Source: Tubulanus polymorphus (lineage: Eukaryota; Animalia; Nemertea). Taken from it: DNA of 64,000 nt. The stretch spans positions 18,314,560 through 18,378,559 of the forward strand of contig NC_134027.1 of the NCBI RefSeq assembly GCF_964204645.1, written 5' to 3'. The notes below the pieces were generated by a model. That model saw nothing but the letters and a program-made list of their open reading frames with translations. It made no database searches and had not been told where the DNA came from. Positions within the stretch are counted from its first letter, which is position 1. Each line of letters opens with the position of its first letter. Below are positions 3,196 to 6,100 of this stretch, one piece after another. A program made the translations under genes and the position numbers.

Positions 3196-6100
3196 GTAAG
3201 TTAATTTCTTAATCAAAAACTATATTCATATAATATACTAGCTAACAACCCGTCATGGAAGGGTTTATCGTAATTGAGTTAGAGTTGATTATTTTACTTC
3301 TTATGTGGAAACCACATTTATTTCGCATATGAATGGAAGTGTCTTGACTTGATTTGGATGGTCAGTTGAATTTACATTTGTGTTTTCTTTTGTTAAGTCG
3401 AAGTAATGGAAAAACATTTCAGTTCGTTTAAGCATTGGTTGACGTTTATGACGTCATGCCAATGCTAGTAAAATGGATCGAAAATCGTAGTCGAAAAAAA
3501 GCATTGGACTCTTCTCATTTTCATAGTAAATTCAAATTGTAACTCCGTTGTCGTAAAATATATAAGACACAGCTGAAAATGACTCAAAATAATGTTTCAA
3601 TTATTCCCTACAAGATAACGTCGCCGGATTTCTGATTAAGTGGTCCAAAAAGTTATGCTATCGCATTTTAGCTCCCGAAGAGCGAGAGAGCTATTACGAG
3701 CGTGTCGGCATCATGTTGTGTATGTTTACCGTGAACCAAAGCACACCATTTTTACAGTCATTGAATTAACGAAAGATCCGATTGATGGGGTTAAATACGC
3801 TGCAAAAATAGATCTAGCAACTTTGTATTCAAGATTAATTCACCATCTATTGGGTTGAATGGTGATAGAAGTTGATCACAATAGTATTAAGAAGATTTTT
3901 GAACATACTGCCATGGAGTCCCGTCGATAGACTGTTAAGTAACACATTTTCCTTGCCAAACTTGTATTCTAAATGTATATTGTATGAAAATAGAAATATT
4001 AATTTGAAAATATTTTGCATTCGAAAATTGATGTTTAGTGCACCAGCGCTTTTTTGTTGAATAATACGTGCGTATGAATATTTGGATGAATTTTACGCAA
4101 TACTTATTTGCATATAGAAAACACCGAACAGGTGAACTATTTGTTTAGGATATAACAATCGCCATTTATCGTCATGATACGGCTTGTCCGAAATGTCACT
4201 AGATAAACCGGTACCGAGAAATATCGCTATGAGATCAACAAACGGATTGCTACTCATACGCGTCTATTACCATGGTCAACCGGACCACTGTTTATTGTGC
4301 AACAACTTTAACCATACATGGGTGGAATGTCAGGATGTAAGCTGCAGTCACCCAACGCATCCACCACATAAATGCAGACAGATAACGCACAGAAACGCGC
4401 AAAAAAACCGGCGTTATGAACTAAATTACCCGACCGCTCAGCAATCGTCAGCGATCAGCAAAAAATCAGACGATTCTGACAAACGTAAACGATCATCGTG
4501 TTCGTCATCCGATGATTCCGCCCCACAAACACCGAGAAAACGTTCCATCCAGGAGAAAGTAAATGATACCCGGATAACTGCGCTTCAGACAACGCTGTAG
4601 GCTGTATTATCTCAGCAGCCAAATGAAACTGATAAACCGATAGCTACGGCTGTCCCTGTTGCTGAAAACTCTAGATCTCTCCCGAAACCGCTGTTTGAGG
4701 GCCTGCCAACAAGCCAACTACAAAAAGACCAGGAGAAGGATACCAAACGCATGAAAGAACTAAATAAAAGTAAGGGGAGATCATCTAGTTCCTTTCCACA
4801 AACCGCCGAAGACCCAAAAGCGGTCCAACAACGGATTAACGCAAGAGAGGAAGAAATAAATCGCCGCAAAAACAAAAATAAAAAGAACTGACTAGACGGA
4901 AAGAGAACTGTGCCAGAACATTTACGGTGTTCTTTAGAACTTTCAGGGGTCCGACCTCTCAAATACGAATGGGAAACCGAAATACTAAATAGATTGATCG
5001 TGCGAGCATCAGCTATATCTCAGAAAGGTAAAATATTGGAAAGCTATCTAAAACGATGTAAAAGTATGAGTAACACGCAGGTTAACTGCTCAAATTTCTT
5101 CGTTCAAAATGAATGCCGAAAATATTAAAATTGCGAGCTTAAACTGTAATGGTCTCGTAACCTCTAAAATTAAAAGATTAAACATTTTTGATAGGGTAAA
5201 CCGATACGATATTTTTCTGTTGCAAGAAACACATATTAAGAGTGATGAAGAGGCAACCAAATTTTTTAAAATTCTGATGAATGACTTCGAAATTATAACG
5301 AATAATAATGTCAATCGTGTTAATGGAGTAGCTATCGGCATAAGTAGGAAAATTGATTTTAAACTGATGAGTCATACTAAAGACACACAAGGACGTGCTA
5401 TTTCAGTAAATTTATTAATTGGAAATGAAAAATTTAAAATCATAAATATATACGCTCCGAATAAAGAAAAACAATGAAAGGAATTTTTCCAATCTTTACC
5501 AAAGATTATTAAAAAAACAGAGAGCGCTAAAGTAATTGTCGGTGGAGATTTCAATTGTATTGAAAACTATTCGCTAGATCGACAATCGGTCCATTCAAAC
5601 CCTAGAATAACTATTGGCACCGAACAGATCGGACAATTGTGTAATTTGTATTGTTTAGAAGATCCATTCAGGTCACTAAATCCCCTAAAACAAGGGTTTA
5701 CTAGAATAACAAAGGTCAACAATACCATAACTAGAACTCGAATTGATAGATTTTATGTTTCTCAAGCTGTCACAAATGATGTAGAAACAATAGAACACCT
5801 TAACTCGATACACTCAGACCACAATTTAGTGTCAATGACAATTCACACAAACCAACCTCAACGTGGCAAGGGATTCTGGCATTTGAACAATGATTTGCTA
5901 AATAATGAAAATTATGTAGACATGATTACAGACATGTGGAATAAGTGGCAAAGGCACAAAGGAGTTTATGAAAATATCCTCGAATGGTGGGATGATGGTA
6001 AAAAGCTTATTAAGTCTAAAACTATTAAATTTGCATGTGCCATTTCTAGATCTAGAAACGAATTAAAGCGTAAACTCGAAAACGAATTATATATTTTAGA

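Follow-up and report, generated by a model that had tools for sequence, protein, structure and literature searches.

The DNA analyzed here is a stretch of 64,000 nucleotides (nt) from the nemertean Tubulanus polymorphus (NCBI RefSeq assembly GCF_964204645.1, contig NC_134027.1, positions 18,314,560 to 18,378,559 of the forward strand), which we refer to as the window and whose own numbering is used throughout. The window contains two long interspersed nuclear elements (LINEs) on the forward strand, one from each of two diverged L1/Tx1-like families, with copy 1 representing family 1 and copy 2 representing family 2. Each carries a first open reading frame (ORF1) that runs through a basic tract into an in-frame TGA, an extension of the same frame behind that stop, and a second frame (ORF2) for endonuclease and reverse transcriptase (RT). 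Our subject is this TGA, a candidate site of stop-codon readthrough, and the extension that follows it. The features are collected in Table 1.

Table 1. Features of the two LINE copies, in window coordinates
Feature	Position	Strand	Details
Family-1 ORF1, 3' part	4184..4888	+	Copy 1, 5'-truncated near 4187; C-x2-C-x4-H-x4-C knuckle, low-complexity linker, helix, basic tract
Candidate readthrough site, family 1	4889..4895	+	In-frame UGA-CUAG
Family-1 ORF1 extension	4892..5128	+	78 codons to TAA; conserved core codons 20-40 (RPLKYxWETExLNRLI)
Family-1 ORF2	5109..8924	+	Apurinic/apyrimidinic endonuclease (APE), RT, zf-RVT; +1 relative to extension
Copy-1 3' tail	8925..9795	+	(TA)n tract, conserved 3' motif, A-rich end
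GACATATCG between copies	9796..9804	+	Second occurrence 20642-20650; only two exact matches in window
Copy-2 5' head	9805..9845	+	Like U1 small nuclear RNA; first 13 nt equal Rfam U1 consensus
Family-2 ORF1	9886..11006	+	Full length, decayed in window (several stops, frameshifts)
Candidate readthrough site, family 2	11007..11013	+	In-frame UGA; CGAA in window copy, CUAA in commoner variant
Family-2 ORF1 extension	11010..11204	+	64 codons to TAA; stop one base before ORF2 start
Family-2 ORF2	11206..20205	+	Start GTG in window, ATG in other copies; later insertions interrupt
Copy-2 3' tail	20206..20650	+	A-rich end, second GACATATCG

The in-frame stop codon and the conserved extension

The initial annotation, made from the sequence of the window, had described a TGA ending the basic tract at the same place in both copies. 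Both TGAs are in frame with the tract, but their placement needs a small correction, in that a one-codon insertion or deletion lies between AREEE and the TGA when the copies are compared. The frameshift of window copy 2, at about 10879, is upstream of the basic tract. The lengths of the two open runs after the stop agree with those first reported, and the chance of open runs this long at the base composition of the elements is 0.002 and 0.007.

The first 40 codons of the extension align without gaps and are identical at 21/40 residues, which reproduces the earlier count, and conservation weakens past codon 40. It begins at the stop itself, with G3, K4, V7 and P8 conserved, joined by L1 and R5 in the family-2 variant described below. 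Third codon positions hold 25 of the 54 mismatches in this alignment; of 20,000 column shuffles none attained 21 identities, and 0.6% attained the excess at third positions. Between the families, the proportion of synonymous differences (pS) in these 40 codons is 0.75, which is saturated, and the proportion of non-synonymous differences (pN) is 0.35, while in core codons 20-40, with 16/21 residues identical, the values are 0.86 and 0.18. Comparison blocks gave pS 0.87 and pN 0.14 for the zinc knuckle and pS 0.77 and pN 0.13 for the start of the endonuclease. A ratio of non-synonymous to synonymous rates (dN/dS) below one past the stop had been named as a check of the readthrough proposal; it is borne out between families, where pN is far below pS, but not within family 2, where the differences look neutral. 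The other two forward-strand frames show 10-12/39 identities and contain stops, and the in-register antisense frame is open in both copies with 16/39 identities, as expected from mirrored codons. These comparisons indicate that the extension is protein-coding and under purifying selection between families. Because the conservation is at the protein level and frame-specific at saturated synonymous sites, the two copies, whose RT identity is 75%, are best read as separate old families and not as recent duplicates.

In agreement with the initial annotation, which had found no shared start codon here, neither an ATG nor a splice acceptor in the extension is common to both families, and a shared splice acceptor was rejected as a candidate explanation. 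It is very unlikely that RNA processing takes the stop away, whether by A-to-I editing of UGA to a tryptophan codon or by alternative splicing. Family 1 does have a TAG just past the stop, yet there is no double-stranded structure around the stop, pyrimidines make up 27-30% of the purine-rich 30 nt upstream, YAG is absent from the first 60 nt in window copy 2, and neither editing nor splicing accounts for the conserved CUA.

Persistence of the TGA in other copies

Further copies were sampled from a raw whole-genome shotgun run, X5 (about 12% read), and from three contig sets, X1, X2 and X3; 128 X5 reads of family 1 and 162 of family 2 aligned to the junctions. In family 1 the window has two other stops, TAG at 4598 and TGA at 5475. 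The first has C in 18/18 X5 reads and all three contigs, and the second has A in 10/14 X5 reads and the X1 contig, so that both are sense codons elsewhere. The X1 contig (981 nt) differs from the window only at these two positions, and both window letters create stops. The two stops are private to the window assembly, through mutation or assembly error, as had been claimed from the window alone. At 4889-4895 no change is present among the differences listed (X5 depth about 12). The contigs that cross the site differ from the window at two positions (X1) or five positions each (X2 and X3), and since all of these are placed elsewhere, the three contigs carry TGA-CTAG.

Family 2 gave a similar result. 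The window stops at 10531 and 10543 are sense codons in 12/20 and 24/32 X5 reads, a frame-restoring base is inserted at 10879 in 16/27, and 11206 is A, which gives the ORF2 ATG, in 5/12. No change at 11007-11009 occurs among the differences listed for this family; the contigs that span the TGA in X1 (record 7) and X2 (record 15) show six differences each, all elsewhere, and that of X3 (record 20) shows nine, two of them without placement. Over the two TGAs, then, five contigs are not identical to the window, and all their differences lie elsewhere. Position 11011 is T in 13/22 X5 reads and in contigs of X1, X2 and X3, which means that the commoner family-2 variant reads TGA-CTAA, not TGA-CGA.

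A sense codon at this site in other copies is what the initial annotation had said would count against readthrough, and none was found among the differences listed, where other stops did turn out to be sense. Independent loss of a sense codon by decay in both window copies, for example CGA to TGA, is hardly credible: an arginine codon of copy 1 does correspond to a TGA, at 10390, in window copy 2 (a stop that is not among the family-2 differences listed), but the TGA at the end of the basic tract stays in copies of both families that have sense codons at the other stops. A coincidence of CpG decay is largely refuted by this persistence.

Context of the stop codon

Established examples of readthrough include MDH1 and LDHB. 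The context of the TGA studied here is UGA-CUA(G/A), family 1 having CUAG, the commoner variant of family 2 CUAA and window copy 2 CGAA. The C after the TGA, to which the initial annotation had drawn attention, is thus present in both families, and the TGA-CTA of the commoner variant is closer to the motif than the context of the window copy. In a mutational scan in human cells, 764 of 765 variants at positions +1 to +4 fell below CUAG in readthrough, only CUAA exceeded it, in MAPK10 alone, and wild-type levels were 0.5-6.4% (bioRxiv 10.64898/2026.07.14.738498). UGA-CUA or UGA-CGG is also the viral Type II readthrough motif (PMC3159437). The background chance of TGA followed by CTAR is about 0.0024 per family at the composition of the element itself, a figure that is not simply squared for two families because they share ancestry, though unselected third positions are otherwise scrambled. 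A need for leucine alone after the stop would lead one to expect CTA in 23 of 110 cases.

The arrangement resembles Type II readthrough in the alphavirus replicase and the furovirus coat-protein extension, where UGA-CUA precedes an in-frame C-terminal extension (PMC3159437), and the human UGA-CUAG cases AQP4, MAPK10, OPRK1 and OPRL1 (bioRxiv 10.64898/2026.07.14.738498). Two of the Type II features, the UGA-CUA context and conserved in-frame coding sequence without a start of its own, are present, and the third, 3' structure, was not found. Common to those systems and to the present one would be an extended structural or RNA-binding protein and two products from one start. Unlike them, the present case concerns a LINE ORF1, has no detected 3' stimulatory structure and is predicted from sequence.

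An in-frame UGA within a conserved frame could also be a sense codon, read as selenocysteine or under a variant genetic code, and we give this almost no credence. Selenocysteine was rejected, as no match to a selenocysteine insertion sequence was found at E-values up to 1 in 4100-20300 and none reached the gathering score in the window. A variant code was rejected on codon usage, ORF2 using TGG 25 times and TGA once, at the stop (5475) that is private to the window.

Junction of the extension with ORF2

The extension reaches ORF2, as the initial annotation had stated, but not in frame: in both families ORF2 lies in the +1 frame relative to the extension and has its own ATG, and an in-frame ORF1-ORF2 fusion was rejected on this ground. 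The ORF2 ATG of family 1, at 5109, sits 14 nt before the extension TAA (AUG-n14-UAA), and in family 2 one base separates the TAA from the ATG (UAA-G-AUG). The distance from UGA to the ORF2 ATG is 217 nt in family 1 and 196 nt in family 2, and three and four other ATGs, respectively, lie between them. Stop and start are thus near one another in different frames in both families, as in coupled termination-reinitiation, for which AUG-n14-stop is a listed spacing (PMC5972666). Reinitiation has been proposed to give ORF2 in SART1 and mammalian L1 (PMC5972666, PMC10275272), and the present elements are like the UAAUG coupling of SART1 and like mammalian L1 in that the ORF2 start adjoins an upstream stop. 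They are unlike them in that the stop at the ORF2 AUG is the second in-frame stop, behind a putatively leaky UGA about 200 nt upstream. Because the extension stop abuts the ORF2 AUG, a coupling of the extension to ORF2 is suggested. Compared with shuffles, no unusual fold was found around the ORF2 start, nor was a downstream structure like that of SART1. As a possible upstream stimulatory element (TURBS), the sequence UGGGA occurs at 4970 and 11088, 139 and 118 nt before the AUG, where it is forced by tryptophan-glutamate codons.

A LINE consensus in Paramecium also suggests readthrough of an ORF1 stop: in non-LTR Group 3, ORF1 and ORF2 share one frame and readthrough would give an ORF1-ORF2 fusion (PMC5405496). 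In the present families readthrough would instead add no more than 65-79 residues; their ORF2 starts at an AUG of its own in another frame.

Relatives and homology searches

The comparison set consisted of 67 LINE loci in contigs of bacterial metagenome-assembled genomes (MAGs), with RT identity of 50% or less and 61 endonuclease starts in 30 groups; the LINE loci in these contigs are likely host DNA. An upstream ORF was counted if it had at least 120 codons and ended no more than 700 nt upstream of the endonuclease start. Such an ORF is present in 24/30 groups and lacking in six, and in 17 of the 24 it ends between -53 and +23 nt from the endonuclease start. In families 1 and 2 the extension stop lies at -1 and -22 from that start and the TGA at -238 and -217. 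The place where the upstream ORF usually ends in relatives is occupied here by the extension stop, not the TGA.

Protein searches among longer proteins gave 35 candidates and no matches for the extension, and one candidate and no matches for the knuckle. A profile search of 1.84 billion representatives returned one match, P0124, to the knuckle only; this protein ends in a basic tract and falls near the zf-CCHC and ZCCHC3-RBD clusters. Its DNA was not found in viral contigs, and a single metagenome scan for it gave a low-complexity match only, in an unrelated contig (L001). The nearest relative, P0004, has 54% identity in the RT. In the near loci L025 and L012 the end of ORF1 is missing; five genomes of this kind, when searched, yielded three matches, all of them weak (E 0.07-0.6). 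No significant match to a profile of the extension or of ORF1 came from the 72 loci searched, and the junction motif was absent from viral contigs. For the predicted read-through C-terminus, AlphaFold on a single sequence gave a model of low confidence (pLDDT 52, pTM 0.23).

Several observations on the loci stand apart from these searches. Among the contigs of MAGs labelled bacterial in GTDB (L006-L072), several carry L1/Tx1-like LINEs, and head-to-tail L1/Tx1-like arrays about 6.4 kb apart occur in L056, L057, L061 and L064-L066. In L011 (3985) and L014 (2414) the stop of ORF1 and the start of ORF2 overlap as TAATG, a junction of the SART1 type. In L013, L023 and L033-L036, ORF1 ends 360-372 nt before ORF2 and has no open extension.

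Weighing of the readthrough interpretation

We consider it likely, on the comparisons given above, that programmed readthrough takes place at UGA-CUA(G/A) inside ORF1 of two diverged L1/Tx1-like families and yields a short and a long ORF1 protein (ORF1p), and the proposal first made from the window is supported to that extent. We favour it because the TGA is kept where the other window stops, the frameshift and the lost ATG are reversed; because the contexts are CUAG and CUAA, pN is much smaller than pS and no ATG or acceptor is shared; and because the extension stop sits where the upstream ORFs of relatives usually end.

A number of points weigh against it. The other copies come from at most three samples of two studies, all labelled as one species, and one of the samples, X1, is possibly that from which the window comes. 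The differences listed are 40 of 64 rows for family 1 and 40 of 69 for family 2, and minor X5 variants of the TGA are possible; the families also seem to be low-copy (X1 has three distinct contigs at 10632-10791 among the records listed). The context data were obtained in human cells, and thus in another animal than the host. No fold above shuffles follows the stop in either window copy (z 0.03 to 1.43), although 3' structure is frequent, not universal, at Type II sites (PMC3159437). TGACTAR was found within 450 nt upstream at 0/61 of the endonuclease starts of the 30 groups, none of these distant groups has the layout or a two-segment ORF1 with UGA-C, and 7/24 groups have spacers of 106-570 nt, so that an extension is no precondition for reaching ORF2. 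Pfam, protein and profile searches detected no homologue of the extension. Within family 2, the window copy and the variant differ in the extension, among the differences listed, by 10 non-synonymous and one synonymous codon differences, which fit neutrality (p 0.21) better than a dN/dS of 0.35 (p 0.008); upstream of the TGA the same comparison gives 13 and 11 (Fisher p 0.055). The changes at 11011, 11023 and 11118 probably arose in the dead window copy, because there the variant is closer to copy 1, but those at 11078 and 11080 shift the variant away from copy 1 within the conserved core. Finally, codon 18 of the extension is an in-frame ATG in part of family 2, namely in window copy 2 and 18/18 X5 reads.

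The last two of these observations each lend something to an alternative. The excess of non-synonymous differences within family 2, together with the tolerance of relatives for long non-coding spacers, would fit a UGA that is now a plain stop, and the extension left over from an earlier C-terminus of ORF1, with selection relaxed in family 2 at least. This we regard as improbable: synonymous sites are saturated between the families and yet both extensions are open with most core residues identical, a shared ancestral loss would have decayed, and it is very unlikely that TGA-CTAR was recently gained twice, independently, at one codon. The ATG at codon 18, which stands just before the conserved core, would serve a separate small ORF behind a true terminator, translated by ribosomes that reinitiate at an AUG confined to one lineage or at a codon other than AUG, and unconventional reinitiation has been proposed for mammalian L1 (PMC5972666). 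We hold this to be unlikely, as family 1 has TCA at codon 18 and no in-frame ATG until codon 59, the X1-X3 variant of family 2 has TTG, conservation begins at the stop, and the readthrough-motif context is found in both families.

Class of the elements and other features of the window

We assign the elements to the L1 group of APE-type LINEs because of the domains of ORF2 (Pfam Exo_endo_phos, RVT_1 and zf-RVT) and because the closest solved relative of ORF2 is human L1 ORF2p (E 1e-66, vs 2e-15 for R2). The features of this group, an upstream ORF1, an A-rich 3' end and a target-site duplication, are all present. ORF1 proteins of the Tx1 clade have RNA-binding domains and a CCHC knuckle; the knuckle motif is visible in the ORF1 sequence, yet it has no Pfam match. 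The label Tx1 is plausible from these sequences; among the 120 ORF2 matches listed, none carries that name. A tree of 53 RT segments joins the two copies in a group of their own (support 1.0) and places P0004 as its sister (0.95).

Copy 2 lies directly behind the 3' tail of copy 1 with GACATATCG on both sides, as a tandem insertion at one target, and this pair is likely the target-site duplication of copy 2. The two tandem copies have the same 9-mer after each 3' end, which would fit a target preference but comes from two insertions only, and they have a 3' motif in common. The U1 match of the copy-2 head is weak (E 6.9, far under the Rfam gathering score). U1-derived heads and target-sequence preference are known in some Tx1 families, the preference being common in the clade (PMC4494074), and crocodilian Tx1-Mar is, like the present elements, an L1-group LINE that has a U1-like head at its 5' end and inserts in tandem around a duplicated target (PMC4494074). 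The U1 5' motif also starts related LINEs (L013 at 70, L023 at 682), full U1 matches flank the element of L022 (2095-2258 and 9020-9196), and one lies downstream in L023 (7238-7406), which suggests U1-linked LINE families in other animals.

The ORF2 of copy 2 is broken by a second endonuclease-RT element (11898-15538, within about 11345-15700) and, near 19575-20150, by an insert that is rich in repeats and has inverted ends. Elsewhere in the window, 2989-3204 has no Pfam match and in our view resembles an N-terminal cytochrome P450 exon, and 57299-57682 is a weak P450 match (E 0.0017); because of these two, the LINE tandem appears to lie within a cytochrome P450 gene of the same strand, in an intron. 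A long broken set of ORFs at 42574-46395 (643, 149, 287, 114 and 100 amino acids) with a Cys-rich end and no Pfam match is possibly a decayed DNA transposon.

Proposed mechanism and significance

Under programmed readthrough, most ribosomes would end translation at the UGA, giving a short ORF1p of about 370 amino acids that finishes with the basic tract, and a few percent would read through and make an ORF1p longer by 65-79 residues. The read-through ribosomes would terminate beside the ORF2 AUG and then reinitiate, a step to which, given readthrough, we assign about an even chance. The output of ORF2p would then be the product of two inefficient steps, with the leaky stop setting its low level. 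The whole scheme, in which two serial recoding steps let readthrough gate the production of RT without an ORF1-ORF2 fusion and the extension is a new C-terminal domain, is put forward tentatively, as a possibility that we rate below an even chance.

Among the papers listed in full-text searches and screened by title and start of abstract (with subscription journals and Repbase outside the scope), there was no report of readthrough inside a LINE ORF1, and the accessible part of PMC5009743 deals with frameshifting in HeT-A and an unexplained TART junction only. Relative to Paramecium Group 3, the novelty would be a leaky stop inside ORF1 with ORF2 out of frame. How LINE ORF2 is translated, at a level far below that of ORF1p, is partly understood (PMC5972666, PMC5009743, PMC10275272), and the present families offer a natural test case, in which two families at synonymous saturation have kept a readthrough motif some 200 nt upstream of a stop-start junction. 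With one species in the range so far, the finding carries limited weight. If the interpretation is true, annotation that cuts ORF1 at its first stop, or calls such stops decay, loses coding sequence, and these families would represent a new LINE layout, readthrough followed by reinitiation, with two ORF1p isoforms predicted to have different C-termini.

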